64,000 nt of DNA from Patescibacteria group bacterium (GCA_041649315.1 JBAZNJ010000004.1:25060-89059), one strand, 5' to 3'. Numbered from the stretch's first letter, positions 47,586 through 63,621 are shown. Made by a program: numbers and translations. The notes: generated by a model from the sequence alone, not told the origin.

Positions 47586-50500
47586 TAATAAATACAATTT
47601 AGTTGCGGAGAGTACGCAGAGCACAGTTGTGGCTGAATATACTCCAAATGGAAAAAGAATCTCTGATTATCAAAGTGAGGCTGAATTAGAGAGTGCTTTT
47701 ATAGAACAGCTAAAAACTCAGGCTTATGAATATGTGGCCATAACCTCTGAGGCTGATTTAGTTTTGAATTTACGTAAGCAATTAGAGAAGTTAAATAATT
47801 TTAATTTTACTGACAGCGAATGGGATAATTTTTTTAATAGTGAAATTTCTAACCCTAATCAAAATATAGAAGATAAAACCGCGACCATTCAGGAAGATCA
47901 TATAAAAAACTTAGTTCGTGAAAATGGTTCAATAAAGAATGTTTATCTTTTAAAGAAGGATAATATTCATGATAATAATCTTCAGATTATTAATCAGTAT
48001 GCCACTGAGGATGGGCAAAGAGCTAATCGTTACGATGTTACAATTCTTGTTAATGGTTTACCTCTAATTCATGTTGAACTTAAACGTCGTGGAGTAGCTA
48101 TTCAGGAAGCCTTTAATCAAATTAATCGTTATCAGAGAGAAAGTTTTTGGGCTTCATCTGGTCTTTTCGAATATGTGCAATTGTTTGTAATTTCAAACGG
48201 CACTCATACAAAATATTATAGCAACACTACAAGATATCAGCATATCAAAGACTCTAATGATGGTGCTTCTAAGAAAGGTAAGCGCACTAGCAGCAGTTTT
48301 GAGTTTACTAGTTGGTGGGCTGATGCTACCAATAAACCAATTACTGATTTAATGGATTTTGCTAAGACATTTTTTTCTAAGCATGCTGTTTTAAATATTT
48401 TGACTAAATATTGCGTTTTTACGACTGACCACTTACTTTTAGTAATGCGTCCCTATCAAATTGTGGCTACTGAAAAGATATTGAATAGAATAGAAATAAG
48501 TACTAATTATAAAAAACTTGGCACCGTTGAGGCAGGTGGATATATTTGGCATACAACTGGCTCTGGAAAAACTTTGACTAGTTTTAAAACTGCTCAATTG
48601 GCTAGTAAATTGCCATATATTGATAAGGTTTTGTTTGTTGTCGATCGTAAGGATTTGGATTATCAGACAATGAAAGAGTATGATAAATTTGCCAAAGGAG
48701 CAGCTAATAGTAATACCAGTACAGCTATTTTAAAAAAGCAATTAGAAGATCCTAATGCTAATATTATTATTACTACTATTCAAAAACTGGATAGATTTAT
48801 TGGAAAAAATAAAGGGCATAATATTTTTGATGGTCATGTAGTTATTATATTTGATGAATGTCATCGATCCCAGTTTGGTGAAATGCATGCGGCTATTACT
48901 AAAGCCTTTAATAATTACCACCTTTTTGGTTTTACCGGTACTCCTATTTTTGCGATTAATTCTTCTTCTGGTGGGCGGATTGATTTTAAGACTACAGAGC
49001 AAGCCTTTGGTGAAAAATTACATGCCTATACTATTGTTAACGCTATTGCTGATAAAAATGTTTTACCATTTAAGGTCGATTATATTTCCACAGTTAAAGA
49101 GGCTGAAAATATTGAGGATAAAAAGGTTAGTGATATTGATCGAGAAGCAATTTTAGCCGCTCCTGAGCGCTTAGAAAATATTGTTCGCTATATTTGTGAA
49201 CACTTTGATCAAAAAACTAAACGCAATAGTTTTTATAAAATAAAAGAGAGAAGGTTGGCTGGATTTAATTCTATTTTTGCCGTTTCCTCTATTGATGTTG
49301 CAAAAAAGTATTATGCTGAATTTAAAAAACAACTTTTAGATTTACCAAGTGATAAGCGTCTTAAAATTGCGATAATTTATAGTTTTGGGGTTAATGATGA
49401 AGATGCCGATGGTTTAGTTGACGAAAATTTAGAGGACACTAGCGGACTAGATCTTAGTTCAAGAGATTTCTTAGAAAATGCGATTATTGATTACAATTCA
49501 ATCTTTGGTACTTCTTATGACACTTCATCTGATAAATTCCAAAATTATTATAAAGATGTCAGCCAAAGAGTAAAGGATAGAGAAGTTGATATTTTGATTG
49601 TAGTTAATATGTTTTTAACTGGCTTTGATGCCACCACTTTAAATACTCTATGGGTTGATAAAAATTTAAGATTGCACGGATTACTACAAGCCTATTCTCG
49701 CACGAATCGTATTTTAAATAGTGTTAAAACTTTTGGTAACATTGTTTGTTTTCGTAATTTAGAGAAAGCTACCAACGAATCAATTTCATTATTTGGTGAT
49801 AAAGAGGCTAGTGGCATTGTTTTGCTTAAATCTTATGCTGAATATTACAATGGCTATAAAGATGGTAATAAAGAAGTTCGAGGATATGTCAGCTTAGTTG
49901 ATGAATTAATGGAGAAATTTCCAGTTAGCGTTAGGATTGACAGCGAACTAGCTCAAAAAGAGTTTATTAAACTTTATAGCAATATTTTGCGTTTACGAAA
50001 TATTTTAACAACTTTTGACGAGTTTTCTAAAGATGAAATTTTTACAGAATATGATATTCAAGATTATCACAGCATGTATATTGATTTGTATAATGAATTT
50101 CGTAAAGCTAAAGAAAGCGAAAAAGAAAATGTTAATGATGATGTCGTGTTTGAAATGGAGCTTATTAAACAGGTCGACATTAATATTGATTATATCTTGG
50201 GATTAATTAAAAAATACCACGAAGATCATACCAAAAATCGAGAAATATTGGTTGATATTAATAAAGCGATTGATGCCAGCGTTGAATTAAGAAATAAAAA
50301 GGATTTGATCAATCAATTTATTTCCTCGCTCGATATTAATTCTGTTGTTGATGCGGACTGGCAGAGTTTTATGAATAAGAAAAAAGTTGAGGAGCTTGAA
50401 CAGATTATTAAAACTGAAGAACTCGATTATGAGGCTACGTATAAGTTTATTAAAAATTCCTTTAGAGATGGTTCAATTGCAGTTTCGGGTACGGCTATAA

Positions 50501-50649
50501 CTAAAGTTTTACCGCCAGTATCTCGATTTTCGCCAGATGGCGAACGAACAAAGAAGCGTGAAACTGTCTTAACAAAATTGACTAGCTTTTTTGAAAGGTT
50601 TTTTGATATTTCTGATGTAAAATTTTTCGACGGTAATCTAAAAAAGTAA
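47575..50649 (+). CDS. hsdR: Type I R-M restriction subunit HsdR (SF2 helicase/translocase + nuclease)
   Basis: 1024 aa. The N-terminal PD-(D/E)xK region reads RYDVTILVNGLPLIHVELKR. Helicase motif I HTTGSGKT, motif II IIFDECHRS and motif VI QAYSRTNR. It overlaps hsdS by 11 nt. Confidence 0.95.
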   Translation: MSVNNKYNLVAESTQSTVVAEYTPNGKRISDYQSEAELESAFIEQLKTQAYEYVAITSEADLVLNLRKQLEKLNNFNFTDSEWDNFFNSEISNPNQNIEDKTATIQEDHIKNLVRENGSIKNVYLLKKDNIHDNNLQIINQYATEDGQRANRYDVTILVNGLPLIHVELKRRGVAIQEAFNQINRYQRESFWASSGLFEYVQLFVISNGTHTKYYSNTTRYQHIKDSNDGASKKGKRTSSSFEFTSWWADATNKPITDLMDFAKTFFSKHAVLNILTKYCVFTTDHLLLVMRPYQIVATEKILNRIEISTNYKKLGTVEAGGYIWHTTGSGKTLTSFKTAQLASKLPYIDKVLFVVDRKDLDYQTMKEYDKFAKGAANSNTSTAILKKQLEDPNANIIITTIQKLDRFIGKNKGHNIFDGHVVIIFDECHRSQFGEMHAAITKAFNNYHLFGFTGTPIFAINSSSGGRIDFKTTEQAFGEKLHAYTIVNAIADKNVLPFKVDYISTVKEAENIEDKKVSDIDREAILAAPERLENIVRYICEHFDQKTKRNSFYKIKERRLAGFNSIFAVSSIDVAKKYYAEFKKQLLDLPSDKRLKIAIIYSFGVNDEDADGLVDENLEDTSGLDLSSRDFLENAIIDYNSIFGTSYDTSSDKFQNYYKDVSQRVKDREVDILIVVNMFLTGFDATTLNTLWVDKNLRLHGLLQAYSRTNRILNSVKTFGNIVCFRNLEKATNESISLFGDKEASGIVLLKSYAEYYNGYKDGNKEVRGYVSLVDELMEKFPVSVRIDSELAQKEFIKLYSNILRLRNILTTFDEFSKDEIFTEYDIQDYHSMYIDLYNEFRKAKESEKENVNDDVVFEMELIKQVDINIDYILGLIKKYHEDHTKNREILVDINKAIDASVELRNKKDLINQFISSLDINSVVDADWQSFMNKKKVEELEQIIKTEELDYEATYKFIKNSFRDGSIAVSGTAITKVLPPVSRFSPDGERTKKRETVLTKLTSFFERFFDISDVKFFDGNLKK

Positions 50650-50653
50650 ATAT

Positions 50654-51946
50654 ATGGCCAAGAAAAATGTTAAAGGCGAATATTTATATAAAGAAAATAA
50701 AACTAAAAAAGTATTTTATTTTCGTGATGATTTGCAAAAAATAAATATAATTTCCAGAATCGTTTTTAAAAATAAAAAACACGAAATCCATTATCCTTTT
50801 TCTAAAGACGGAAGACAGAAATATAATTATATTAAAGAAATATCTTATAATGGATTATCAAGTCCTCTTCCTAGAGGATTAATTAAGGACTCAAAATTAG
50901 GATATGGATTTACAAAAGTGCTATCACCTATAATTTATCAGATAGATAGGGTTCTTAAGCCTAATAAATTAGAAGTTTCAAATAATGGCAAAACAAGAAT
51001 AGACAAAAAAACATTATATATCAGTTATGCGGAACTAAATAAGGTGTACCCCAAAATTGATTCATTGCTTCAGCGACATTCAAAAGAAAAAGAGGTGACT
51101 GCACAAAAATTTCTATCCTTATTTTTCCCAAAAAACTTTAAAGATCTTAAAGACACGTATATTAAAGGAACTTTATACTCGATAATCTCTGATCAAGTTA
51201 AAGATGATGTAAAAAAAATATCTAAAGATGACTTTGACTCAATATTGGGGTTAACTTTAAGAGAATTAAAAAATCAAGGAGTAGAATCTAAGAAGGTGGT
51301 GTTGGAAACAAGAGAAAAAATTGAAAGGCGCTTTTTAGAAGACGCGATCATTTATTTTCAAAAACTATCACAAAGAAAACTTGACAATAATAAATTGGAG
51401 AAAGACTGGGAAAAATTTCTTATAGAAAATCCATGGATTATTTCTAATTTATTTGCAACACCCGTGTTCTTTTTTCAGAATCAAGCATACGTTGGCGGGA
51501 AAGAAATAAACAATTCTAATGGAAAGGTTACTGATTTTCTTTATAAAAATGAATTCACTGATAATATTGCTGTTATTGAGCTAAAAACGCATAAGACCAA
51601 TTTATTATCGTCTAAACCATACAGGGGCAAGGACGTCTATTCATTATCAGTAGAGCTTTCGGGCGCAGTTAATCAAGTTTTAAACCAGCGACAGAATTTA
51701 ATTCAAGAGTTTATAAAACTTAGAACTAAAGATGAGTGGTTTGAATCTTATAATCCAAAGTGTCTAGTTATTGCTGGTAGTATTGCTGACTTACCAAAAA
51801 ATGGAGCTAAAACTTTCGATATTTTTAGAAATAGCTTGCAGGGTGTGGAAATAATTACTTTCGATGAGTTACTTAAGAAACTCGAATTTTTTAATGTGTT
51901 AATTAAAGGCGGTAAGAAAAAAAGAGGGCGAGAAAAAAGGTTTTAA
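50654..51946 (+). CDS. Shedu-like protein (C-terminal DUF4263 PD-(D/E)xK nuclease domain, SduA-type) with an unassigned N-terminal region
   Basis: 430 aa. The C-terminal ~180 aa reads EKDWEKFLIENPWIISNLF...KVTDFLYKNEFTDNIAVIELKTHKT...AVNQVLNQRQNL...CLVIAGSIADL...EIITFDELL. This matches the DUF4263 pattern (D...E-x-K, Q-x-x-x-Y-like helix, ...TYDEL). It starts 5 nt after hsdR. Confidence 0.65.
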   Translation: MAKKNVKGEYLYKENKTKKVFYFRDDLQKINIISRIVFKNKKHEIHYPFSKDGRQKYNYIKEISYNGLSSPLPRGLIKDSKLGYGFTKVLSPIIYQIDRVLKPNKLEVSNNGKTRIDKKTLYISYAELNKVYPKIDSLLQRHSKEKEVTAQKFLSLFFPKNFKDLKDTYIKGTLYSIISDQVKDDVKKISKDDFDSILGLTLRELKNQGVESKKVVLETREKIERRFLEDAIIYFQKLSQRKLDNNKLEKDWEKFLIENPWIISNLFATPVFFFQNQAYVGGKEINNSNGKVTDFLYKNEFTDNIAVIELKTHKTNLLSSKPYRGKDVYSLSVELSGAVNQVLNQRQNLIQEFIKLRTKDEWFESYNPKCLVIAGSIADLPKNGAKTFDIFRNSLQGVEIITFDELLKKLEFFNVLIKGGKKKRGREKRF

Positions 51947-51981
51947 GAAAGTAAGAAAAATATATTAAGTATAATTAAGAT

Positions 51982-52194
51982 ATGAAAAAATATAAAATTT
52001 ATTTTGATAGAGACGGTATTGAGCCAGCGGAAATTGTAATTACCGGGGAAGGTAATAATTGTCGAGTTGGCGCTGTAAGAGTGCAACATGAAACCATCTT
52101 TTTTAATTGCCAAGGAACTCTTGAAAATATATTAAAAAAAATTAGTGATAAACTAGGAAAATATGGTATTAAAAAAATAGAACCTATAATATAG
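51982..52194 (+). CDS. Small hypothetical protein (70 aa)
   Basis: The ORF lies between the Shedu-like gene and the PD-(D/E)xK/DUF5655 gene on the same strand. No recognisable motif. Confidence 0.4.
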   Translation: MKKYKIYFDRDGIEPAEIVITGEGNNCRVGAVRVQHETIFFNCQGTLENILKKISDKLGKYGIKKIEPII

Positions 52195-52218
52195 TTATAT
52201 TCTTAATTAATAAAAATT

Positions 52219-53136
52219 ATGCCACTTTTTAAACAGGATAGTAATAAATTATCCATCATTCAAGAAAAAAATATTGATCTAGAAAAAACAGTTCAAAAAT
52301 TAACTGAAAGTAATTTGGATAATATTTTTAGTTTGGAATTTGTTAGCACTGAATTTGCTTTGCATAACTTTAGAATTGACACCTTAGCCTTTGATCAAGA
52401 AAATAATTCTTTTGTTATTATAGAGTATAAAAGAGATCGAAGTTTCAGTGTTATTGATCAGGGTTATGCTTATTTGGCTTTAATGCTTAATAATAAGGCA
52501 GATTTTATTTTAGAATATAATGAGAAAACAAAGAATAGTCTAAAGAGGGACGATGTTGATTGGTCGCAGTCTAAGGTTATTTTTGTGGCAAATTCCTTTA
52601 CGTCTTATCAGATGAATGCGATTAATTTTAAAGATTTGCCGATAGAGCTTTGGGAAGTGAAAATGTATGATAATGATGTAGTTTTATATAACCAGTTATT
52701 ATCTCAAGACTCTAAAGAATCAATAAAAACTATTACTAAAAATAAAACTATAAATAAGGTAAGTAGCGAAGTTAAGGTGTATACGCTAGAGGATCATCTT
52801 AGCATTCCAGAAGATATAAAAAACCTATTTTTTGCTTTAAGAGAAAAAATTTTATCGCTTAGTGATTCCGTGGAAGAAAGACCTAAACAAAATTATGTGG
52901 CCTATCGATTAAAGAATGCTTTTGCCTATGTTCATAATCAACAGTCAAAAATAAAAATTCATTTGGAAATAAGAAAAAAAGATTTGGACGATCCAAAAAA
53001 TATGGCTAGAAATGTTGAAGGAATTGGACATCATGGCGGAGGAGAGACTGAGGTTATTTTAAATAGGTCTGAAGATTTAAATTACGTTTTTCTGCTAATA
53101 GAACAGGCTTATAATAGGATATCTAAAAAATCTTAA
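52219..53136 (+). CDS. PD-(D/E)xK nuclease-like N-terminal domain + DUF5655-like C-terminal domain protein
   Basis: 305 aa. FRIDTLAFDQENNSFVIIEYKRD...IDQG fits a D...E-x-K...Q nuclease core. The C-terminal ERPKQNYVAYRLKNAFAYVHNQQSKIKIHLEI resembles DUF5655. Its stop codon overlaps the stop of the convergent recombinase gene. Confidence 0.55.
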   Translation: MPLFKQDSNKLSIIQEKNIDLEKTVQKLTESNLDNIFSLEFVSTEFALHNFRIDTLAFDQENNSFVIIEYKRDRSFSVIDQGYAYLALMLNNKADFILEYNEKTKNSLKRDDVDWSQSKVIFVANSFTSYQMNAINFKDLPIELWEVKMYDNDVVLYNQLLSQDSKESIKTITKNKTINKVSSEVKVYTLEDHLSIPEDIKNLFFALREKILSLSDSVEERPKQNYVAYRLKNAFAYVHNQQSKIKIHLEIRKKDLDDPKNMARNVEGIGHHGGGETEVILNRSEDLNYVFLLIEQAYNRISKKS

Positions 53137-54416
53137 TTAATTAGAACAGTTTTATTTTGAAGTAGTATTTTCCCGTTTAAACACGTAAGTAATTCTCGTT
53201 TCTCTTGATCATCACCCTCCTGTAGTAAAAACTTGATATAATTTTTAACATCGACGTCGCTCACGTCGATGTTTTGATTTTTGCCAGTCGCCATTATTTG
53301 AAATTTCTTAAATCTTTTTATTTCTCCTTCAATTTTATCTTGAACTGGTAACTTCTTGAAATCTAATTTCTCAACCTGCTTTTGTAATTGTTTTATTAAG
53401 TCTTCTTCGCTGATATAACCCGACTTACAATTTTTATCTTTTGCTTTGGTACAGCCATAATAAATATGACGGTTAAAACCTCCATTTTTTAATTTCTTAA
53501 ATTTTTCTGTTGCTGATATTCCTGAACCACATAAACCACAGGTCATAATTTTGGTAAAAGCGAATTCAATATTTTCTCGTCTAACTAATTGGGAATTCTT
53601 CATTTGATCTTGAACTAAATCAAATAATTCCTTGGTTATCAGTGGCTCGTGTTTGCCTTGATACCAATTACCACTGCCTCGGGGATATTCAAAGGGGCCA
53701 TAGTAGAAAGTATTTTCAAGAAGACGGTAGATATTTCCTAAACTTAAATGCTTTTTTCCTAGCGCGGTTCTAAAATTTAAATCAAATCGTAACCAATTAT
53801 AAATCTTTCGGCCTGACCATTTTTCATAAGCGACTTTTTCAAACATCTGTCTGATAACGTGGCCCCTGTCTGGGTCGATCAAACATTGTCCCTTATGATC
53901 AACTTGTTTTTCTTTAAAGTAACCAGTCGGCGGGCAAGTCGGCCATAAACCTTTTTCACATCTAGCTCTTAAACCTCTTTTGACGTTTATGCCACGATTA
54001 TCATTTTCGAGTTTTGCTTGAGAACATAGAATCATGAGCAGAAACTTTTCGTTTGGAGAATTACTAAATGTTTGGCCAAAGGTGCGAATACTCATTAATT
54101 TCTTCTCATCCATTAAATCAACTAAGGATCCTAAGTCACCAGCATTTCTTGAAAGTCTATCAGGTGCCCAGGTTAAAATAGCGTTAAATTTCTCTTCAGC
54201 TATGTCTTTTAATAACTCCTTAAAGATGGGGCGATTGCCAGAATCTTTGGCGGACTTTGATTCTCGTCTAATATCAACGATTTCCAAATTTTCTCTTTCA
54301 GCAATTTGAAGCATTTCCTTAACCTGTGAATCGATTGATTGGACTTGTCGCTCGTCTGATTCAGTACTCTTTCTAGCATAAAGACAGTATTTTAGCTCAG
54401 TTTCTAATGGAGGCAT
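53133..54416 (-). CDS. Large serine recombinase (resolvase domain + recombinase domain + zinc ribbon)
   Basis: 427 aa. The N-terminal CLYARKSTESDERQVQSIDSQ carries the catalytic Ser motif, followed by DRLSRN. The C-terminal Zn ribbon is CGLCGSGISA...YYGC. Confidence 0.85.
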   Translation of the reverse strand: MPPLETELKYCLYARKSTESDERQVQSIDSQVKEMLQIAERENLEIVDIRRESKSAKDSGNRPIFKELLKDIAEEKFNAILTWAPDRLSRNAGDLGSLVDLMDEKKLMSIRTFGQTFSNSPNEKFLLMILCSQAKLENDNRGINVKRGLRARCEKGLWPTCPPTGYFKEKQVDHKGQCLIDPDRGHVIRQMFEKVAYEKWSGRKIYNWLRFDLNFRTALGKKHLSLGNIYRLLENTFYYGPFEYPRGSGNWYQGKHEPLITKELFDLVQDQMKNSQLVRRENIEFAFTKIMTCGLCGSGISATEKFKKLKNGGFNRHIYYGCTKAKDKNCKSGYISEEDLIKQLQKQVEKLDFKKLPVQDKIEGEIKRFKKFQIMATGKNQNIDVSDVDVKNYIKFLLQEGDDQEKRELLTCLNGKILLQNKTVLIN

Positions 54417-54486
54417 ATGATTTAATAGTTAATTATTAGTTAAATCTACGCCTCCATTAATGACACACTTTTAAGGTTCTGCTAAG

Positions 54487-54538
54487 CAGCTAGCTGTTGG
54501 TAACTTGTCGATAACTTTTCCTTTAATATTAAAGGAAA
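54487..54538. promoter_or_regulatory. Palindromes in the terL-recombinase intergenic region (candidate protein-binding site or terminator)
   Basis: cagctagctg (54487-54496) is a 10-bp perfect palindrome. tttcctttaatattaaaggaaa (54517-54538) is a 22-bp perfect palindrome lying 3 nt downstream of the terL stop. Confidence 0.35.
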
Positions 54539-54540
54539 TA

Positions 54541-56013
54541 TTACCAATATAAGGTATAAACTCTTGGTGGATTAGGGCGTTTATCCAGTAAACTGTGGGC
54601 CAAATTAACAAAAGCATCAGCTAGATCATCATGTTTTTCAACTCCAAAATGAACTATTTGTTGGATTAACTCTTCAGCCCCTTTTCTTGGAAATAGTATT
54701 TGCCCGTTTTTAATCATATTAGCTGTCAGAACAAGTCGGGTGCGTTTATCTTGGCTTCCTGGGTGTGTAGTCATGACATTGCCAATCCCCTCAACTTTTA
54801 ACTGTTGAGGAAGAGCTTTTTGATAAGCGACATCTTCCACGACCAACCTGACGAGATCATAATCCTTTTTATAACTCTCATACATAACCTTGCAGGTATC
54901 GATGGTTTCGGGGAAGTTAAGCCGTCTATTGATTATCTTCGGCAGAATATAAATTTTGTATCCTGTTTTCGTTTCAAATAGTAACCCAGGCACCATGGCT
55001 GTATAATCAGCGACGGAACTTTGAGAGATAGCAGGATCAATACCGATTCTAACTTCAAGATGTGATTTATATCCGCCGTACATATCCATTCTTTCTGGAA
55101 TCTCATCATAATAATTAATCCATTCAGGGTAAATAGCTTGGTCATCACTGGGAACAATATTTAACAGATATTCTTGTTGCCAAGTAATCTCATTGCCAAC
55201 TTTTTTCCGCTCGGCTTCAATATCTTTATCGGTTGGGTATTTACCAGGCCACAAGCAAATACCTTTTTTATTGATTAACGGGTAGAAAAGGAAATTGCCA
55301 TCAATAATTTCTTTTTCCTTTTCTTCTTTTAATCTCATAAGCAAAGAATCTTCATGTAAGAGGTTTCCCACTATAACCAGTCTTGTGTCCTTATCGCCAG
55401 CAGGAATAACCTCGCTCTTAAGCCATTGATAGGTTTTATTGCGGCCATCTCTGGTTTTGGTTGAGCTAATATCTTCCACATCATCGCAAATAATCAAATC
55501 AGGCCGATTTTCGTAATGTCTAATACCTCTAATACTTTGATCAACAGAAGCGACGGTAATTCTGGCATCAGTATTTGAAAAGACAATTGATTGAGCGCCC
55601 CATTCATCGCTATTTTCTCGAAATGGGCCCAAGTCTTTTTTAAGTAGGTCATTATCTTCTAATTCTCGGCGCAGATTCATCATGTGTTGTTTAGCTTGCG
55701 CTTGGGTTTGACAGAAAATAACGACAAACTTCTTTTGCTGTTTGCCGAGTATCGCCCAAATCGGATAAGCGGCGGTAATAATAGTTGATTTGCCTGATCC
55801 TCTAAAAGCCACCACAAACAAATTTTCTTTGTGACTGGATTCAATTAAAGAAATTATGTTTTTCTGAAAATCCGCTGTTTCATATTTAACATAATGGGCG
55901 TAGTAGAAGTGAAAGAAATAAGAAAAACTTTCCCTAGTTATCGCCGTTCTTATTTTCTTGTCCTGGGTCATTTGCTCCACCATTTCTTGTGGAATCATCT
56001 TGTTTACTATCAT
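54541..56013 (-). CDS. terL: Phage terminase large subunit (TerL)
   Basis: 490 aa. Walker A AFRGSGKST and a Walker B-like LIICDDVED. The C-terminal RNaseH-like nuclease region has an acidic residue pattern (VVEDVAYQ..., HDDLADAF). Confidence 0.8.
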   Translation of the reverse strand: MIVNKMIPQEMVEQMTQDKKIRTAITRESFSYFFHFYYAHYVKYETADFQKNIISLIESSHKENLFVVAFRGSGKSTIITAAYPIWAILGKQQKKFVVIFCQTQAQAKQHMMNLRRELEDNDLLKKDLGPFRENSDEWGAQSIVFSNTDARITVASVDQSIRGIRHYENRPDLIICDDVEDISSTKTRDGRNKTYQWLKSEVIPAGDKDTRLVIVGNLLHEDSLLMRLKEEKEKEIIDGNFLFYPLINKKGICLWPGKYPTDKDIEAERKKVGNEITWQQEYLLNIVPSDDQAIYPEWINYYDEIPERMDMYGGYKSHLEVRIGIDPAISQSSVADYTAMVPGLLFETKTGYKIYILPKIINRRLNFPETIDTCKVMYESYKKDYDLVRLVVEDVAYQKALPQQLKVEGIGNVMTTHPGSQDKRTRLVLTANMIKNGQILFPRKGAEELIQQIVHFGVEKHDDLADAFVNLAHSLLDKRPNPPRVYTLYW

Positions 56014-56428
56014 ATGTGTTTGTATTATTAATTATTAATTGCTCATCGGCTGGTAATAGTTTTGCCAGTTTCAAAGCATGTTTTACTACTTCTGCTTGAG
56101 CAGGAGTTAGTTCGTCGGTATCTTCCGTTTTGGAAGTTACCTCAATCTTATCTTTAAACCTCGGATTGCGATGTCTAAGCCAAAAGCTGATCGCTGACCA
56201 ATTCTTTTCTTTAATCATTGTTAAGAGTTGGCTTTCGCTCATGTCGTTTACTAGAGCCTCACCTTCGGCTAAGGCCTCATCCATTACTTTCGAGAATTTT
56301 TTGTCCTCTCGTTTCCAGCGATAAATGCTGTTACGAGATACACCTGATTTTTCACAGGCGACTAAAACGATAGGCACTTTCTTAAGCTCGTTAAAGAAAG
56401 CTTCTTGTAATCGGCTTTTCTTAGACAT
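55934..56428 (-). CDS. Terminase small subunit-like HTH protein
   Basis: 164 aa. N-terminal HTH (VACEKSGVSRNSIYRWKREDKKF). It sits immediately upstream of terL and overlaps it by 80 nt if both annotated starts are used. Confidence 0.55.
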   Translation of the reverse strand: MSKKSRLQEAFFNELKKVPIVLVACEKSGVSRNSIYRWKREDKKFSKVMDEALAEGEALVNDMSESQLLTMIKEKNWSAISFWLRHRNPRFKDKIEVTSKTEDTDELTPAQAEVVKHALKLAKLLPADEQLIINNTNTYDSKQDDSTRNGGANDPGQENKNGDN

Positions 56429-57701
56429 GCTCCACCACCTCCTTTCTGCCTGTTAATTTTCGATATCTTGCTATCGCCAAATCACAGAAAATTGGCTCAA
56501 GTTCTATCGCATAAACTTTCCTTTTTAATTGCTCACCAGCAATAATGGTGCTGGCTGATCCCGAGAAAGAATCAAGAATAATATCTCCAGGCTTAGTACA
56601 GCGCCTTATAGCCTTTTCGTAGAGCTTTGGGGGCTTACTGGTGGCATGTTCGTAATCTTTACCTGAAATACGCTTGGTAAGCCAAATATCTAAAGAATCA
56701 TAGATATCTTCAAACATTTCATTACCAGTACCAAGCTCTTTGTTTAATACCTCGTTATAGTTTTTAATATCAGAATTGATATATGGCTTGCCTTTAACCC
56801 CATAAACGGCAGGTTCATAACACTTATTGAAAGCAATTTTAGGAGTAGGGTTTTGTGAATTTTTAAGCCACAAACAAACTCGCTTATTTATTATTCCTAG
56901 TTCTCGATATAACTCTTGAAATAAGCCGATATATGTTTGGTCGCACCAGTAAAATACATGGCAGTCATTTTTAGTGTTCGGCAAAGCGGCTAAAAGAGAA
57001 TTCTTAATAAACTGCTTATATTCTTCATAACTTCTATTGTCATTAACCGTTCCGCCATAATCATTTTTACCGCCAATGCCTTTGGAATAGTCTAATTTAA
57101 TGTTATAGACTGGATCAGAAAATATCATTGAGGCCCTGTCATTACCAAATAATCTTTTTAGGTTATCGGGGTTGGTAGAATCGCCACAAAGTAGGCGATG
57201 TTCGCCTAAATGTATTAGGTCACCTGGTTTAGTTTTTGGTGTCTTTATCTTTTTTAACTCTGCCTCAACATCAAAGTCCTCATCTTTTACTTCTAATTCT
57301 TTATCCCAGAAATAAGATAAATCGACTTGATCAAAACCAATATCAACTAAGAGGTCTAGGTCAAATGTCTTTAACTTTTCAAAATCCCAATCACCACCTA
57401 AAGCGTTGCTGGAAATAAGATATCTTTTAGTCTCATCTTCGGTTAGTTGACGATTAGGGATCCTAACATCAATTAGCTCCTCACCTCTGCCAAGGATTTG
57501 AAGGGCCTTAACTCGCTGGTGGCCGGCCAAAATTTTGCCAGTTAAGTCGATGGCTGGAATTTCGACTAAATTAAATTTAGCCAAACTTTTCTTAAGATCA
57601 GACATTTGTTTATCACTGATCTTTCTAGGGTTAACATCTTGGGGAACAAGATCGTTAACTCTTTTTTGCACTGTGTGCCATTGGAGTTTTTCTGCTTTCA
57701 T
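56421..57701 (-). CDS. ParB-like nuclease domain fused to an N4/N6 DNA methyltransferase
   Basis: 426 aa. The N-terminus has a ParB-like NPRKISDKQMSDLKKSL...GHQRVKAL. The methyltransferase motif IV variant is SDPVYN. The C-terminal AdoMet motif is ILDSFSGSASTIIAG. Confidence 0.8.
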   Translation of the reverse strand: MKAEKLQWHTVQKRVNDLVPQDVNPRKISDKQMSDLKKSLAKFNLVEIPAIDLTGKILAGHQRVKALQILGRGEELIDVRIPNRQLTEDETKRYLISSNALGGDWDFEKLKTFDLDLLVDIGFDQVDLSYFWDKELEVKDEDFDVEAELKKIKTPKTKPGDLIHLGEHRLLCGDSTNPDNLKRLFGNDRASMIFSDPVYNIKLDYSKGIGGKNDYGGTVNDNRSYEEYKQFIKNSLLAALPNTKNDCHVFYWCDQTYIGLFQELYRELGIINKRVCLWLKNSQNPTPKIAFNKCYEPAVYGVKGKPYINSDIKNYNEVLNKELGTGNEMFEDIYDSLDIWLTKRISGKDYEHATSKPPKLYEKAIRRCTKPGDIILDSFSGSASTIIAGEQLKRKVYAIELEPIFCDLAIARYRKLTGRKEVVEHV

Positions 57702-57788
57702 ATTATTAAAATTAATTATGATTTGTATAAATTTTTGAAAGAGTTAAGGCCCTCAAACTAAATACAATTTAATTTTAATAACAAAAAA

Positions 57789-57812
57789 CAGGACTGTCCT
57801 TGCAGTCCTGTT
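57789..57812 (-). terminator. Hairpin terminator downstream of 57837..58505(-)
   Basis: Stem caggactg / cagtcctg with an 8-nt loop, flanked by an A-run on the + strand (a T-run on the - strand). Confidence 0.65.
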
Positions 57813-57836
57813 AATTCATGCTATTTCTATCTATTT

Positions 57837-58505
57837 CTACTTTTTTGACGAAAAATCAGATGGATAAATATCGTCAATTTCAGCTTTTTTCATATCATCT
57901 CTGGTTATTGGATTCCGAAATTCAGTAGCCTTTAATGATATGTTTGGAAAAAATAGTTTTTTAATATTTCCTTTAAATCCAAGGTCATTAATTATTTGGT
58001 CGAATTTTTTAACCATTTTACTATTCTTGTATTTGGCAAATTCTCCAGACGTTATTTTTTTATTTGGATTATTTACTATAAACATTGCGAAGTAATCATT
58101 TTCACTATCAAAGCGTGGCTTTGCTATAATTATTTCATTAACTTTTAATTTTCTATTTTCATAAGTGGCATGCAAAATAGCATTGGATTCGTTGAATATT
58201 AAATAATCGTTTAATTTATTGTCTTCCACATATTTTTTAAAGCCATCTAATAATTTTACCTCCACAGCTTGTCCGATCGGCTTTAATGCTTTATACATCA
58301 AGGTGTCCATATCATTCCTTACGGCTCTGTTATCCAGTATTTCTATTAATTTATTTTTGCGTAAAGTAATTAAGGTGGAGTTAATTTCTGAGTCAGATAA
58401 TCCAGAAAATTCAGTTCTTTGTATTACAACAATATCATCATCGGTAATTTGGTGAAACTTTAGTAAAATTAAGATTATTTGTCTTTTGATTTCCGCTCCT
58501 GTCAT
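57837..58505 (-). CDS. Hypothetical protein (222 aa), possible wHTH regulator
   Basis: Clean ORF, divergent from the 939-aa gene. The N-terminal ~60 aa (IILILLKFHQ...SEINSTLITLRKNKLIEIL) looks wHTH-like. The rest is unassigned. Confidence 0.5.
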   Translation of the reverse strand: MTGAEIKRQIILILLKFHQITDDDIVVIQRTEFSGLSDSEINSTLITLRKNKLIEILDNRAVRNDMDTLMYKALKPIGQAVEVKLLDGFKKYVEDNKLNDYLIFNESNAILHATYENRKLKVNEIIIAKPRFDSENDYFAMFIVNNPNKKITSGEFAKYKNSKMVKKFDQIINDLGFKGNIKKLFFPNISLKATEFRNPITRDDMKKAEIDDIYPSDFSSKK

Positions 58506-58619
58506 ATATTTTTTTACATCATTATGCTAATATTATAGTATATTTGACTAAATATTACTATAAATGCCTACATCTTAAAATAACAGGGTAGTTAGTATTA
58601 TTTTTTTCTTAACTTTTTT

Positions 58620-61439
58620 ATGCATTCCAAACTTCAAACAATTATTATTAACTCAATAAATGCTAATAACCAAACTTGTTTTGCTGGGATTATTTGTGCA
58701 AATGAAATATTTATTGTTATTTATGGTGTTATTTTTACAATGGTAATTTCTTTGGGTGTTTACATCTACGGATTGCAAAATAAAGGTGAAAAAATAACAT
58801 TAATTAAAAATACAAAGATAAAACAAGTTATTAGATATTGTTTGATATTTTTTTCTATAAGTTTTTTGTCATTGCCAGGCATAATTTATGAGTTTGTAAA
58901 TTTTTTACTGGTTGCGGTAGTACTTTATAACATTTTCAAAGCCTTTACTGAGATCTTTGCGTTTAATGAAAACGAACTTTCTGGCGAAATGGCTGTTAGA
59001 AAATTTAAAGAAGGTGTAATTCAAGATAAGCTTAAGGAATTTGAAAATATTAAGATTAAAAATGATATTTTTAAAAAATCTGTTGAAGATAAAAATGATA
59101 TATCAGTAGAAAGATTTTTATTCGATGAAAACAAGGATGCTTACCATTTTATTCGTGCGCAAAATTCTGGTTTTATTGTCGACATTAACCTAAACGTTCT
59201 TTCTTCGAAAGAGATTGATGGAGTTTCTTCGAAAGAGATTGATGGAGTTTCTTCAAAAGAGATTGATGAAGTTTTTTCGAAAAAAAATTCTTATTACATT
59301 CCTTATAATATTTCAAATGGTGCTCCGGTTGCTTTTGATAGTATTATTTTGGGCGTAAAGAAAGAGGAGGGACAAAAAATAGACGAAGAAAGATTGCGCT
59401 CTTTCATTTCTATTAGCGAAAAATACGAAAACCCAACTTCATATTTGGAAGCTGAAATGAGAACTTATTATTCTGAAATGTTTTCACTCATTAAAATAGA
59501 AGATACAAAAAGTCTTGAATTAAAACTTGAAGAATTTTCAAACTTTGTGAATCATTTTACAAATAGAGCTGAGTCATACGCGGATTTAATCCAATTTATT
59601 AATGATGATATTGTTTTTCCTTTACAAAGATTTTCGTTCAAACGAACTGAAATCGATTGTATTAGGGAAATGGTTTCTTTTTCGCTAAGCTATGTCTACC
59701 AATCACTTGATAAAAAATCAATTCAAACGTTTAATATTTTCTTAAGAAATGTTAGTCATGCTTTTTATCAGTCATTTAGTCTTAGTGTCGAAAAACAGAA
59801 TGAATTTAGTGATATATATTTTAGATGGTTAAATGAAATAGCAAAATATTCAATTAAACCAAAAATACAAAAAGGTGAAGATTATAATGAATATGTAATT
59901 AACTTTCTATCAAGTCTTAACGGATCATTGAAGGTTGCTTTTGATAATAAGAACATTGGAGCCTTCTCTAAAACTTTAGAACTATTAAATAATTCGTTCT
60001 CACGTGAGAATTATGAACACGATGAAGATAATTTATTAGATGAATTAGTGTTAACAAAAAAAGCCGTAATCTTTGGTTTTACTTCTTGGGCATATAAGTA
60101 TTATCAAGAAAGAAAAGATGAGGATTTCTACAAAAAAGCTCTCGCTGAGTTGTTGGTTGCGTTGCAAAAAGACCGTGTTTATTATTATGGAAATGTTCAG
60201 GATGACATAAATTATTACCTTTTAGTTTATTTGAAAGCAATAAAAATATCAGGAGAAAAGGGATCGTTTGGCTGGGATAGTTGGGGAATGCCAGAAGGGG
60301 TAGTATATACCGTTACTATACATAACGACGCGAAGAATTTACTTATAGATAGAATTCTTAGTACAATTATCAATAACCAAGCTCTAGAAATAGATATAAA
60401 AGCCGGAAGTTATAATGACGAGCTTTCTCTTATTAAGGAGGGCGATCAGCAGTTTGATCCGCTATTTGGAAAAAATAAGTTATCTTTCATTGCAACAATT
60501 GATCTTGATGACGAAAAATTTGCCCTCGCAAAAGCAAAATTATATGAAATATTCTCTCAATTAAGTTTAAAATATAATGAAGAAGTAAAAATAAAATTAA
60601 TCGATCAACCTCTTGATGATGGTAAGTTTGAGAAATTTGCTGAAGAGAATTTTAAGTCATATGAAAAATCGCGTATTCTGTACAGAATTAAGAAATTTAT
60701 TAAAGATGATGTTAAAAAAGTAGATGGTTTTGGTTACAACATGTTACTTCACAAAGAGCAGTTTGTTGAGGATACAAACATTCATTATTCAAATGAAAGC
60801 CAATTTGGTGAAAATCTTGCCCAATCAGAAGATAATAAGATTTTGGAGTCTATCTATAAAGATTTTGAAGATATTGTTGCTATAAAAAAAGATAAAATTT
60901 GGAAAAATATTCAAGCAGAAGAAAATTTATCAGCGATTGTTATTTGGACTAATGGACATTTTTTTATTGAAGACACTAATCCAGACAACTTTAAACCACA
61001 CTGGAAAGAAGATGATTTAGGAGAAGACAGGGGTTATCATTATCAGGGGTCAATAAACGGTACTCCTGTATACTTTGTATATAAATTAAAAGAGTATAAA
61101 AAATATGCCGACACCCTCTTTATTTTTAAACAGGATCCTTTTTCTGTTAAAGAGTTTGAAATTATAGAAGATCAAAATATTGATCAGGCTAATTTTAAGT
61201 TCAAAAAAAGTGAAAAAAATTGTTTGAATCTTTCTGTTACAAATTTATCTTCTCTTAACGAAGAAAGGACAAAGATTGTGGAAAAATGGATAGAATTAAA
61301 TCCAGGAAGCATAGCCGACAAGAACGCGGAGATTGAAAAATTAAAAACAAAAGTAGTCTTTAAATTTTACAAAGGACTGTCTATCGGAGATGTCAAAGTT
61401 ATTGATTCAAATACTAAAATATTTCATATTACTAAATAA
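58620..61439 (+). CDS. Large orphan protein (939 aa) with an N-terminal multi-TM anchor and a long soluble region of unknown function
   Basis: About four predicted TM helices lie in the first ~110 aa (FAGIICANEIFIVIYGVIFTMVISLGVYIY; VIRYCLIFFSISFLSLPGIIY; FVNFLLVAVVLYNIF). About 830 aa follow with no Walker, nuclease, protease or HTH motif recognisable by eye. A 3x (SSKEIDGV) repeat is present. Very AT-rich. Confidence 0.6.
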   Translation: MHSKLQTIIINSINANNQTCFAGIICANEIFIVIYGVIFTMVISLGVYIYGLQNKGEKITLIKNTKIKQVIRYCLIFFSISFLSLPGIIYEFVNFLLVAVVLYNIFKAFTEIFAFNENELSGEMAVRKFKEGVIQDKLKEFENIKIKNDIFKKSVEDKNDISVERFLFDENKDAYHFIRAQNSGFIVDINLNVLSSKEIDGVSSKEIDGVSSKEIDEVFSKKNSYYIPYNISNGAPVAFDSIILGVKKEEGQKIDEERLRSFISISEKYENPTSYLEAEMRTYYSEMFSLIKIEDTKSLELKLEEFSNFVNHFTNRAESYADLIQFINDDIVFPLQRFSFKRTEIDCIREMVSFSLSYVYQSLDKKSIQTFNIFLRNVSHAFYQSFSLSVEKQNEFSDIYFRWLNEIAKYSIKPKIQKGEDYNEYVINFLSSLNGSLKVAFDNKNIGAFSKTLELLNNSFSRENYEHDEDNLLDELVLTKKAVIFGFTSWAYKYYQERKDEDFYKKALAELLVALQKDRVYYYGNVQDDINYYLLVYLKAIKISGEKGSFGWDSWGMPEGVVYTVTIHNDAKNLLIDRILSTIINNQALEIDIKAGSYNDELSLIKEGDQQFDPLFGKNKLSFIATIDLDDEKFALAKAKLYEIFSQLSLKYNEEVKIKLIDQPLDDGKFEKFAEENFKSYEKSRILYRIKKFIKDDVKKVDGFGYNMLLHKEQFVEDTNIHYSNESQFGENLAQSEDNKILESIYKDFEDIVAIKKDKIWKNIQAEENLSAIVIWTNGHFFIEDTNPDNFKPHWKEDDLGEDRGYHYQGSINGTPVYFVYKLKEYKKYADTLFIFKQDPFSVKEFEIIEDQNIDQANFKFKKSEKNCLNLSVTNLSSLNEERTKIVEKWIELNPGSIADKNAEIEKLKTKVVFKFYKGLSIGDVKVIDSNTKIFHITK
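59210..59281 (+). repeat. 24-nt tandem repeat x3 inside the 939-aa gene
   Basis: tcttcgaaagagattgatggagtt x2 is perfect. A third unit, tcttcaaaagagattgatgaagtt, has 2 substitutions. The array encodes SSKEIDGV-SSKEIDGV-SSKEIDEV. Confidence 0.9.
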
Positions 61440-61451
61440 AAAATTATCTTT

Positions 61452-61730
61452 ATGCTAAAAATATTCAAAAGGAGACGGCATGAAATAAATGAAAGTAATC
61501 AATTTCAACATCTTCCGGGGGTATATTATTCTAAAGAATTATCGGATAAAGATAAAAATTTTATTAAATCAATGAATGGCTATAATAATTCTGCCCAAAC
61601 GCCAATGCTCGTTGATAAAATATGCGTTTTAACAAATGAAATAAAGAATTTAAATACAGCCACGACAATATTTTCAACCGCTCTCGTTATTTTTGCAATA
61701 ATTCAAATCATAATATCACTTAATAATTAA
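61452..61730 (+). CDS. Small protein with C-terminal TM helix (92 aa)
   Basis: Starts 13 nt after the 939-aa gene. The C-terminal TM helix is TTIFSTALVIFAIIQIIISL. Confidence 0.45.
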   Translation: MLKIFKRRRHEINESNQFQHLPGVYYSKELSDKDKNFIKSMNGYNNSAQTPMLVDKICVLTNEIKNLNTATTIFSTALVIFAIIQIIISLNN

Positions 61731-61740
61731 TATACGTTAT

Positions 61741-62163
61741 ATGTCTAAAAAACAAATTATTCAACTTGTGGTTCTGACATTTTTTCTTTATTTAGGGGTT
61801 TTCTTTATGAAGGATAGTGAATATTTTGAGTACTATGATATTTATGGACTAATGACTTTAATAATTTTGTCTGGCTCATATGTTGTATATAGTAAACAAG
61901 ACAATAAATTTACCGAATATTTTAGAATATTTTTATATGCAATTTTAGCAGTTTTAATTTATATATTTTTAGATAACAACGTTTTCTTTTCTTCGTATCA
62001 TTTTTATACCGAAGTGATGAGCTACAAACCGCTGGAAGCTTTATATATAATATTTACTGGTTTTGATTTTATTTATGTATTAATGATTTCTGCTTTGTTA
62101 TTATTTAATAAACCTAAAAAATATAAGGAATTTAAGTTAGGTTTTTTTACTATTAAAATATAA
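61741..62163 (+). CDS. Small polytopic membrane protein (140 aa, ~4 TM)
   Basis: Starts 11 nt after the preceding ORF. The hydrophobic segments are IIQLVVLTFFLYLGVFF, GLMTLIILSGSYVVY, IFLYAILAVLIYIFL and YIIFTGFDFIYVLMISALLLF. Confidence 0.5.
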   Translation: MSKKQIIQLVVLTFFLYLGVFFMKDSEYFEYYDIYGLMTLIILSGSYVVYSKQDNKFTEYFRIFLYAILAVLIYIFLDNNVFFSSYHFYTEVMSYKPLEALYIIFTGFDFIYVLMISALLLFNKPKKYKEFKLGFFTIKI

Positions 62164-62202
62164 ATATTTTAAATAATTAGTTTTTATAAATTATCTAAAA
62201 AT

Positions 62203-62234
62203 AAAAATACCGCCCTCGACCTAGGCGGTATTTT
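62203..62234 (+). terminator. Rho-independent terminator after the orphan block
   Basis: Stem aataccgcc / ggcggtatt with a 9-nt loop, followed by a T-rich run. Confidence 0.7.
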
Positions 62235-62312
62235 ATTAAAAAATTCTAAATTATCTTGCCCTGTATTGCTCGCATTTCTGCGATTGTGACCAACAAAATA
62301 ATAAAGAATAAT

Positions 62313-62513
62313 TTATCGTCTGTGTTGAATTTGTTCTATTCGGTTTTCTTCTAAATACTTAATAATGTCTTTCTCGGAAAAACGTAGAACCCCATTTATT
62401 TTGTAGAAAGGAATCTTTCTGCCCTCTACGATTCTATAGGCAGTAGTTTGGGATATGTTGAATAGTTTGCTTAGATCCTTTATGGATAAAAGCTTTAAGT
62501 CATTTAAATCCAT
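62313..62513 (-). CDS. Excisionase-family (MerR-like) HTH DNA-binding protein (second copy, divergent)
   Basis: 66 aa. LLSIKDLSKLFNISQTTAYRIVEGRKIPFYKINGVLRFSEKDIIKYLEE shows the same family pattern as 44146..44328. Confidence 0.7.
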   Translation of the reverse strand: MDLNDLKLLSIKDLSKLFNISQTTAYRIVEGRKIPFYKINGVLRFSEKDIIKYLEENRIEQIQHRR

Positions 62514-62619
62514 ATTTTAATAATAAGTTAATATTCATATATTATATCTCAGTTTGCCTTTTATTTAAAATAGACTAATATAAAATAAAGCCCTTTATAG
62601 AGGGGGTAAAATATAATAA

Positions 62620-63063
62620 ATGCTCTCAATCGGCGATACATGTTCAATGCTTTTAATTCCGCTGTCATCTTCGGTGTCGTCTTTTGTTTGGCAGATAATT
62701 TATTTTTTGTGGTCATGGAACGGTTTTTGGATTCTGGTCGGTTTAGTCATTTGGACTGTCGTGGAGTTATTTACCCGGAATGGGAAATTTCATTATAATT
62801 CAGAAAACGGTTTTTCTCCTGCCTTTAATATATTTGTTGGCAGCGGACTGTATTGGGGGACACAATCCTTACTTCTTATCCTGTTGGAAAAATTGTTTGG
62901 TGAGTCGGTTTATTGTTTTGTCTGGCCATATCCAGTTCATTTGATTATCTTTGCTTCCACTGGTATTATTTTACATGTTACGGGTTTTTGGCCTTATCTT
63001 AAGGATCCAGGGGCCAAACGATCACACAAAAGAGGTAAACGTAGTCATAAACGAAGGATTTAA
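62620..63063 (+). CDS. Polytopic membrane protein with basic C-terminal tail (unknown function)
   Basis: 147 aa with about 4 TM helices. The C-terminus is KRSHKRGKRSHKRRI, a duplicated basic heptad. Confidence 0.5.
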   Translation: MLSIGDTCSMLLIPLSSSVSSFVWQIIYFLWSWNGFWILVGLVIWTVVELFTRNGKFHYNSENGFSPAFNIFVGSGLYWGTQSLLLILLEKLFGESVYCFVWPYPVHLIIFASTGIILHVTGFWPYLKDPGAKRSHKRGKRSHKRRI

Positions 63064-63336
63064 CATATTTATTAAAGTTACAACTATCTGTAACTTTATA
63101 CATCATACTTGTGTCACTTTTGTCACTTTTTAAGAAAAACAATAGCGCACGAGGATCTTATTTATTAAAGACTTAAAAAAGCACCGAAAAGCCTTGCTGG
63201 GCTTGCCGAAATTACGGTTCCAGCCCGAGGTAGCCCGCTAATAAAAATAAGGTCTATAGCCTTATTTTTTGTTATTTTAATATGTATTGACAATTAATTT
63301 AAAATGCAATACAATGCAAATATAATATATAATAAT

Positions 63337-63621
63337 ATGACTACTAAAAACAATGAACAGATTCAGATTAGAATTGATTCTAAAACTAAAAATGAAGCAA
63401 AAAAGATTTTGGATAGTTTGGGCATGGATATGAGCTCGGCTATAAAAATCTTTTTTCGCCAAGTCATAAATGCTAAAAATTTTCCTTGTGAGCTAAGAGG
63501 AGAAAATGGATTTACTTTACGGAACGCCGAGGTTTTACGTAAATCAATTATCGATGCAAAAAATAGCAACAAATCTTTTAATAAGGGATCGTTACTCATT
63601 AAAGATGCTTTGCATGATTGA
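63337..63621 (+). CDS. RelB/DinJ-family antitoxin
   Basis: The track ORF starts at 63304. The ATG at 63337 gives MTTKNNEQIQIRIDSKTKNEAKKILDSLGMDMSSAIKIFFRQV, the ribbon-helix-helix DinJ pattern. It ends 3 nt before the toxin gene. Confidence 0.75.
   Translation: MTTKNNEQIQIRIDSKTKNEAKKILDSLGMDMSSAIKIFFRQVINAKNFPCELRGENGFTLRNAEVLRKSIIDAKNSNKSFNKGSLLIKDALHD

Follow-up and report, generated by a model that had tools for sequence, protein, structure and literature searches.

A tRNA-adjoining island family of Patescibacteria with a complete terminase and no recognized virion genes: candidate phage satellites

Described phage satellites redirect packaging by means of a small terminase subunit (TerS), cos sites, or Rpp, or else encode a terminase alongside genes for a capsid (PMC10690885). 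Both terminase subunits are encoded by the capsid-forming phage-inducible chromosomal islands (cf-PICIs) and by the Streptomyces satellites MulchRoom and MiniFlayer (PMC10690885). Here, we describe an island that encodes TerS and the large terminase subunit (TerL) along with a methyltransferase and a large serine recombinase, and that lies in a 64,000-nt stretch of DNA from a Patescibacteria group bacterium (GCA_041649315.1, JBAZNJ010000004.1:25060-89059; "the window"). This island (window positions ~43950-63944) is a copy of a widespread 13- to 20-kb island family of Patescibacteria, and we think it somewhat more likely than not that the family consists of satellites that bring their own whole terminase and use the capsids of a helper phage. 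Bacteria of the candidate phyla radiation (CPR), or Patescibacteria, account for a large share of bacterial diversity and are mostly unculturable, and very little is known of their mobile elements and of the biology of their phages. An earlier note on the window, made from its sequence alone, had held that such elements are not known to have been characterized in CPR-type bacteria; targeted full-text literature searches (CPR with terminase, serine recombinase, satellite, or PICI) returned no published description of the element family.

The core block and the island family

The core of the island is a string of four minus-strand genes that encode a ParB-like methyltransferase, a TerS-like helix-turn-helix (HTH) protein, TerL, and a large serine recombinase (Table 1). 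The earlier note had read this string, its tight packing with overlapping starts and stops, and a 124-bp gap from the DNA, and both the Pfam and PHROG matches and the open reading frame (ORF) coordinates bear this out. The methyltransferase and TerS genes overlap by 8 nt, the TerS and TerL genes overlap by 50 to 80 nt, depending on the start chosen (public gene calls start TerL at 55983, which yields 480 aa), and the gap between the TerL and recombinase genes is located at 54417-54540. This gap contains a palindrome (CAGCTAGCTG) that resembles the GCTAGC center of the att arm and could be a promoter or operator of the recombinase gene.

Residues 7 to 149 of the methyltransferase are ParB-like (phrog_620), and both PHROGs matched by the TerS-like protein (4044 and 309) are annotated as terminase small subunit. 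TerL has the two domains that define a large terminase subunit, an N-terminal ASCE ATPase and a C-terminal RNase H-like nuclease. In an alignment of 18 sequences, its Walker A and B residues (G72/K75/S76/T77 and D177/D178/E180) and the acidic residues of its nuclease (D326, E393/D394, and D462/D463) are invariant. The AlphaFold2 model of TerL (pLDDT 70) has the fold of phage TerL, and its top Foldseek matches are the TerLs of PhiV-1, D6E, HK97, P74-26, G20c, and T4. The recombinase, which is the sole recombinase in the island and is presumed to be its integrase and excisionase, shows the YARKST catalytic motif; its three domains and a short attP with inverted half-sites (see below) are those of a large serine recombinase.

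In comparisons with eight close relatives (dS of 0.5 to 2), the dN/dS values are 0.02 to 0.035 for the recombinase, 0.009 to 0.07 for TerL, 0.03 to 0.16 for TerS, and 0.03 to 0.05 for the methyltransferase. All four core genes are intact, and purifying selection on them is strong. Because of the low dN/dS values, the invariant TerL motifs, and the phage TerL fold, decay can be excluded for these four genes. The earlier description of the module as intact holds for all four core genes; the far-end att site of the window copy is degenerate, and this copy lacks the CI-like repressor seen in many relatives.

To describe the family, we used 80 loci found by scanning a single genome from each GTDB species, plus six others (86 loci in total, 81 of them nonredundant), as well as 35 IMG/VR contigs; L numbers below denote individual loci and contigs. 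TerL has more than 4,000 homologs at an E value of ≤1e−10. The best 120 of them are 64 to 94% identical, are found on contigs of up to 860 kb, and, where the organism is given, belong to Patescibacteria lineages such as Pacebacteria, Komeilibacteria, Taylorbacteria, and Gracilibacteria. The order of methyltransferase, TerS, TerL, 0.03 to 8 kb of cargo, and recombinase recurs in about 80 Patescibacteria loci and in the 35 IMG/VR contigs (TerL 39 to 99% identical), and the IMG/VR contigs retain it at TerL identities of only 39 to 62%. Of the 86 loci, 81 have TerS immediately upstream of TerL, 79 have the methyltransferase upstream of TerS, and 61 have the recombinase downstream of TerL. Absences of core genes are mostly due to contig ends, and nearly all core genes share the strand of TerL and keep the same order. 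Three distant homologs, as judged from precomputed Pfam annotations, are embedded in the same arrangement (N6_N4 methyltransferase, small HTH ORF, TerL, 0 to 8 kb of opposite-strand cargo, and recombinase), with no structural genes in their neighborhoods. In 32 loci, an S24 LexA/CI-like autocleavable repressor gene is divergent from the block. The best deposited phage TerL is only ~27% identical to the TerL of the family.

We found no virion genes in association with this block. The earlier note had reported no portal, capsid, tail, or lysis genes in the AT-rich region, and the Pfam and PHROG searches of its ORFs likewise revealed no head, tail, portal, or lysis family. Across the 81 nonredundant loci, TerL is directly followed by the recombinase in 28, by a convergent ORF in 47, and by another co-directional ORF in only 5. 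The co-directional ORFs include an Ltp lipoprotein and a few without a family match; on the IMG/VR contigs, they encode a reverse transcriptase, restriction-modification (RM) enzymes, a transposase, and a ribonucleotide reductase. No portal-like gene was detected among all the co-directional ORFs after TerL scanned in genome and IMG/VR loci. Among 102 noncore ORFs from 15 delimited elements, the matches are to MmeI/Eco57I-type RM enzymes, Shedu, Thoeris ThsA and ThsB, and SMODS/SAVED proteins, as well as to reverse transcriptase, Schlafen-like helicases, superinfection-exclusion proteins, and metal transporters; no head, tail, or lysis family is among the matches listed. When the ORFs of the 81 nonredundant loci were clustered, the only recurrent families besides the four core genes were the repressor and a 135-aa ORF. 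The lack of any other recurrent family speaks against hidden structural genes, and it also means that there is no conserved replication module.

Three side observations concern individual members of the family. The Rfam LOOT RNA (RF03000, 70 to 95 bits) is located on the minus strand between the post-TerL cargo gene and the recombinase in five elements (L002 12687-12816, L003 12218-12337, L030 12246-12373, L048 12026-12147, and L063 12000-12114) and is absent from the window. In-frame TGA codons, an expected feature of code-25 lineages, are present in some IMG/VR loci. In six of the IMG/VR contigs (L100, L101, L103, L105, L106, and L119), TerL appears to be split into two ORFs under translation table 11 and TerS is often uncalled, a pattern that pseudogenes would explain less well than translation of an in-frame TGA as glycine (code 25; Gracilibacteria/Absconditabacteria). 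Eight loci (L009, L010, L012, L014, L019, L056, L069, and L070) are binned as Gammaproteobacteria, Dysgonamonadaceae, Nanoarchaeia, Omnitrophota, Bdellovibrionales, or Flavobacteriaceae; for these non-CPR labels, misbinning or an unreliable label is more likely than a true host.

In the window, the GC content is host-like (~0.44), except in an AT-rich block (~0.30) that extends from ~44 kb to the window end. The earlier note had delimited the unit as 53133-57701. However, the stop codon of the recombinase gene shares 3 nt with that of the convergent PDC-S18 gene, so no element end is present on the 3′ side of the recombinase, and the element is instead the entire AT-rich island of ~20 kb that adjoins tRNA-Ser(GGA). 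A contig that is 99.9% identical (L001) reaches 2.9 kb past the window, and its GC content returns to ~0.44 just past the window end. The earlier note had reasoned that structural and lysis genes immediately downstream would make this an ordinary prophage; these 2.9 kb contain no virion or lysis gene, and encode a 223-aa protein and a polysaccharide flippase.

Table 1. Features of the island in window coordinates
Feature	Position	Strand	Evidence or remark
tRNA-Ser(GGA), integration target	43881-43968	+	ARAGORN; Rfam tRNA 55 bits
Element terminus, P′ arm, palindrome AACATCGTGCTAGCACGAGGTA	43969-43990	+	Directly abuts tRNA 3′ end
HTH_17 protein, 60 aa, excisionase-family fold	44146-44328	+	Present at junction in L125
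Type I RM cargo	44341-50649	+	Pfam, PADLOC
HsdM	44341-45915	+	Pfam, PADLOC
192-aa ORF in type I RM cassette	45830-46408	+	
HsdS	46413-47585	+	Pfam, PADLOC
HsdR	47575-50649	+	Pfam, PADLOC
Shedu SduA nuclease, cargo	50654-51946	+	PF14082 E 7e-23; PADLOC SduA E 9e-77
PDC-S18/DUF5655 candidate defense protein, cargo	52219-53136	+	PADLOC PDLC04945 E 2e-116; PF18899
Large serine recombinase, 427 aa	53133-54416	-	PF00239 Resolvase, PF07508 Recombinase, PF13408 Zn_ribbon_recom; phrog_95 integrase E 8e-62
TerL, 490 aa	54541-56013	-	phrog_38 E 3e-82; Terminase_6C PF17289
TerS-like HTH protein, 164 aa	55934-56428	-	phrog_4044 E 4e-12; phrog_309 E 2e-9
ParB-like + N6/N4 methyltransferase, 426 aa	56421-57701	-	PF01555 E 1e-28; phrog_498 E 9e-84
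Variable region	57837-63063	mixed	No Pfam/PHROG/PADLOC match except one HTH_17
222-aa ORF	57837-58505	-	No family match
Membrane-anchored 939-aa protein	58620-61439	+	No family match
Further variable-region ORFs of 92, 140, and 147 aa	within 57837-63063		No family match
HTH_17 ORF of variable region	62313-62513	-	
Noncoding end block	63074-63270	+	Core conserved in about 40 loci
RelB/YafQ toxin-antitoxin pair	63304-63897	+	Pfam on L001
Degenerate attR remnant CACCCTCTCCGC, right island end	63933-63944	+	Core-then-hairpin layout as in L011, L012 attR

The ORFs of the variable region are singletons or near-singletons among the 86 loci; a homolog of the 140-aa protein adjoins the junction in L125. 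The 60-aa HTH_17 protein was considered as a recombination directionality factor and dropped, because tblastn finds it only in loci that also have the type I RM system. Several AT-rich patches upstream of the island are further small defense- or toxin-antitoxin-like insertions in the host region. They contain two AAA_14/DUF4143 ATPases (25063-26310 and 35458-36861), a protein with Schlafen AlbA_2, HATPase_c_4, and winged HTH domains (28279-29673), and an AbiEii toxin with a 193-aa upstream partner (37795-39076). Two large ORFs, of 645 aa (26314-28251) and 1,455 aa (29894-34261), have no Pfam match at E ≤ 0.001.

Attachment sites, mobility, and the end block

The last 19 nt of tRNA-Ser(GGA) (43950-43968, CGAATCCCTCTCTCTCCGC) form the B-arm/core of attL, and the P′ arm that comes next is followed by a terminator-like hairpin (43995-44022). 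The P′ arm AACATCGTGCTAGCACGAGGTA is identical in nine relatives (among them L008, L010 to L013, L015, L020, and L044) and has compensatory changes in L023, L087, L049, and L080 to L084; a conserved palindromic arm is found directly 3′ of every such tRNA in the relatives. Their tRNA gene is located 3 to 10 kb beyond the recombinase, with its 3′ end always toward the element. The targets are tRNAs for Ser (TGA, CGA, and GCT), Asp, Gln, Glu, and Trp, which, together with the GGA of the window, gives four Ser anticodons.

At the far end, at least four relatives (L011, L012, L030, and L087) have 19- to 21-nt copies of the tRNA 3′ end, and L053 has the same P arm with a tRNA-like core. The far-end copy is preceded by a CTCGTGAC motif, which is clear in L012 and L053, and, in L011, L012, and L030, by a GC-rich hairpin ~130 nt in length. 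Delimited by the tRNA side and the far-end repeats, the relatives are 13.6 to 18.6 kb in size. Joining of both ends reconstructs an attP of ~46 bp, in the order CTCGTGAC-CGAATCCCTNCCTCTCCGC-AACATCGTGCTAGCACGAG, whose outer inverted motifs (CTCGTG...CACGAG) are as expected for a serine integrase. In the GC-rich arm of ~130 nt next to attR (L011 3425-3560, L012 241-400, L030 1587-1720, and L125 560-680), the tRNA-like core at the end and its reverse complement at the start make up a long hairpin, and the motifs GAGAAAGCCGGAG and GAGGCGGGGTCG of this arm are kept across elements with different tRNA targets.

The window has no simple exact copy of the tRNA 3′ end as a repeat, and the attR remnant at the right end of the island, which is followed by a host-type terminator hairpin (63954-63977), is recognized only by means of the relatives. 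Comparison with L011, L012, and L125 shows that neither the CTCGTGAC P arm nor the GC-rich hairpin arm is left at the far end of the window copy, where RelB/YafQ now sits. Because the far-side recombination arm has been lost, the window copy is probably anchored: its tRNA-side end is intact, but it may no longer be able to excise.

Evidence of mobility comes from the relatives. Two different metagenome-assembled genomes (MAGs) share an element that is 99.97% identical over 16,435 bp (L015 3372-19806 and L020 1-16435) and that is located at tRNA-Ser(TGA) in L015 and at tRNA-Asp(GTC) in L020. The identity ends 5 nt inside the tRNA, which indicates a recent transfer with a crossover at the extreme 3′ end of the tRNA. 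Given this crossover point, the far-end repeat is a tRNA-like P arm carried by the element, and, given the two targets, the recombinase tolerates related tRNA 3′ ends. A search of public metagenomes for the predicted junction yielded two contigs, L124 and L125. In L125, the right end (a homolog of the 140-aa ORF, the end motif, the arm, and the core) is joined to the left end (the P′ arm, HTH_17, and hsdM) of a window-like element, as would result from a circular or tandem form. L124 (2311-2620) has an intact tRNA-Ser with its own terminator, followed by a GC-rich arm, a tRNA-like core, and a P′ arm; here, attB-like and attP-like sites lie side by side, which simple integration does not explain. 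Tandem or multiple copies are also found elsewhere: L029 has three arms, L121 has two modules, L113 and L114 are on one contig, and L069 and L078 are on two contigs of one MAG. Terminal direct repeats, which would mark circular contigs, were found in none of the loci examined, the attP pattern has no match in IMG/VR, and a search for the empty site with the flanking DsbA-like protein returned a single 1.2-kb contig. As judged by these att sites and junctions, the family is site-specifically mobile and integrates at tRNA 3′ ends via its large serine recombinase.

Near its right end, the island has a conserved noncoding block. In about 40 loci, the core of this end block is located 2.5 to 8 kb upstream of the methyltransferase, always in one orientation. 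The block has an inverted repeat (GTTACA-N6-TGTAAC, 63077-63094), a direct repeat (TGTCACTTT, two copies, 63112-63126), two C[AC]CGAGG boxes (63148 and 63224) that match a box in the P′ arm, and a terminator-like hairpin (63245-63270). The C[AC]CGAGG motif is found at three sites only in the island, namely, these two and the one in the P′ arm. We rejected the possibility that the block is a structured RNA, as it has no Rfam match and RNAalifold found no consensus structure (zero pairs), and for the same reason we treat it as a set of DNA sites. Its repeats and boxes suggest that it may be protein-binding DNA, with a pac site, an operator, and an accessory recombination site as candidates. The 18-mer of the end motif has 19 matches in IMG/VR, only two of which are elements of the family, and it gave no lead to a helper phage. 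The other matches fall in TGTCACTTT-rich repeats on contigs that lack the module; in two of these contigs, there is weak TerL similarity only (26 to 29%).

A proposed satellite with its own terminase and rival readings

The island combines a full terminase and an integrase with antiphage defense cargo and has no shell genes, and, therefore, elements of this kind probably travel in the capsids of other phages. We propose that, upon induction, the core block would be expressed (many relatives have a divergent LexA/CI-type repressor upstream) and the recombinase would excise the island as a circle. TerS would then recognize an island-specific site, for which part of the end block (63074-63247) is a candidate, and TerL would pump island DNA into the procapsids of a co-resident or infecting helper phage, while the methyltransferase would modify the DNA in advance against restriction in the next host. 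The net result would be a phage satellite that swaps the whole terminase of its helper, not TerS alone. The earlier note had likened the module to satellites, and this is still the best available reading, although dependence on a helper and packaging into virions are what we infer.

Several points weigh against this proposal. We identified no helper phage whose virions would hold island DNA. TerL is only ~27% identical to any deposited phage TerL, so it would not necessarily be compatible with a helper portal. Unlike in classical PICIs, no replication family is conserved among the recurrent clusters, and helicases are only sporadic cargo. The window copy itself has neither the attR arm nor a LexA/CI-type repressor, and the junction contig L125 could reflect tandem copies and not circles. 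In addition, the structural-gene scans covered the island loci, so that such genes are possible elsewhere in these genomes, and the cargo matches listed are the 25 commonest families, behind which weak structural matches could be hidden.

The strongest rival explanation, which we nevertheless regard as unlikely, is that the block of methyltransferase, TerS, and TerL is a phage-derived interference or defense system and not a transfer device, in an island that is mobile by its serine recombinase. Such a block could hijack or jam the procapsids of infecting phages, or it could cut unmethylated concatemers while the methyltransferase protects self, and the island could spread by, for example, natural transformation. 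This would be in line with an island packed with defense systems and without conserved replication genes, with a methyltransferase that is always coupled to TerS and TerL, and with a TerL that is very distant from those of known phages. However, no PADLOC defense model or system matches or contains the TerS or TerL of the island. Moreover, a ParB-methyltransferase gene directly upstream of terS is an ordinary arrangement of phage late genes, and phrog_498 and the TerS PHROGs are phage families. TerL has also kept complete ATPase and nuclease motifs, as in packaging enzymes, and the coupling to an inducible CI-type switch and a recombinase suits mobilization.

It is less probable still that the island is an autonomous virus, or an agent similar to a gene transfer agent (GTA), whose structural proteins are encoded either by unrecognizably divergent ORFs in the island or at a separate chromosomal locus. 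Many island ORFs, such as those for the 939-aa and 222-aa proteins, do lack a family match, CPR phages are poorly represented in databases, and a Saccharibacteria phage without an identifiable capsid is mentioned in PMC6509639, citing Dudek et al. 2017. Structural genes would need to be conserved, though, and the ORF clustering revealed no further family linked to the core; the unannotated ORFs of the window are singletons, and elements can be as small as ~13.6 kb. A GTA would be at odds with the lack of a structural cluster at the locus, with its recombinase and att sites, and with the movement of the element itself.

A decayed (cryptic) prophage that lost its structural and lysis genes by chance would account for the phage-type genes and for the degenerate far-end att site and toxin-antitoxin module of the window copy, as are often seen in fossils, but it is highly implausible, given that the same gene set and order are found in more than 110 loci from many Patescibacteria lineages with no intermediate that has a portal or capsid gene, that the ORFs are intact, without leftover structural genes and under strong purifying selection (dN/dS of 0.01 to 0.16), and that there are a recent transfer between genomes (L015/L020) and a junction contig (L125). 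The argument of the earlier note against simple decay is thus strengthened by selection, by the junction, and by a conserved mobile family that is never found with virion genes.

We conjecture, more tentatively than for the satellite reading itself, that the family represents an undescribed, ancient, and abundant class of CPR satellites, which have their own TerS and TerL, a protective methyltransferase, no capsid, and a serine recombinase for integration at tRNA 3′ ends whose attP arm mimics a tRNA 3′ end, and which are a main vehicle of defense systems between CPR genomes. With more than 4,000 TerL homologs, the family would rank among the commonest mobile elements of CPR/Patescibacteria. 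It offers an explanation for the spread of restriction, Shedu, Thoeris, CBASS-like, and other defense systems among genomes with scant spare coding capacity. For recombinase engineering, it is a source of large serine recombinases whose natural att sites, in tRNA genes, are well delimited, and it places the orphan LOOT RNA motif in a genomic setting.

Comparison with known systems

The closest parallels are phage-inducible chromosomal islands and Staphylococcus aureus pathogenicity islands (PICIs/SaPIs) and the PICMI-type minimal satellites. Like these, the family consists of site-specific islands of 13 to 20 kb without capsid, tail, or lysis genes, with packaging specificity from their own TerS, a phage-type repressor in many members, accessory and defense cargo, and tandem copies. 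Of the defining traits of PICI-like elements, the family shows the absence of virion and lysis genes and, on the evidence of the tRNA-adjacent ends, the far-end repeats, the one element at two tRNAs, and the junction contig, site-specific integration and excision by its own integrase; in the window copy, the attR is degenerate. A replication module of its own (a primase or replicase with an origin) is not found among the recurrent clusters. Induction by a helper phage and packaging in its virions would have a single indirect support, the retention of terminase genes without capsid genes. The island differs from these satellites in that it adds a complete TerL, uses a large serine recombinase and not a tyrosine integrase, targets tRNA 3′ ends, and has neither a recognizable primase/replicase module nor identified genes for redirection of capsid size. 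Its host is a member of the Patescibacteria, and its dependence on a helper is proposed.

The cf-PICIs and MulchRoom/MiniFlayer also encode a major capsid protein, portal, protease or scaffold, and head-tail connectors, which are absent here and in the relatives; no capsid, portal, protease, or connector family was found in the window or in the relatives scanned. Because known satellites have no terminase, have TerS or Rpp only, or have TerS and TerL together with capsid genes, the configuration is new, and satellite biology would gain a missing one, a full terminase without a capsid.

Temperate phages with large serine integrases (such as phiC31, Bxb1, A118, and SPbeta) share with the family the domain architecture of the recombinase, an attP of ~46 bp with inverted outer motifs, and the late-operon order of methyltransferase, TerS, and TerL. 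In contrast to these phages, the family lacks everything from portal to lysis, its TerL is at most ~27% identical to deposited phage TerLs, its attB is a tRNA 3′ end, and its P arm is tRNA-like. Finally, tRNA-targeting defense islands and tycheposon-like elements are, like the island family, tRNA-adjacent, widely distributed, and rich in variable defense cargo. What sets the family apart from both is its conserved core of terminase and methyltransferase and its use of a serine and not a tyrosine recombinase.

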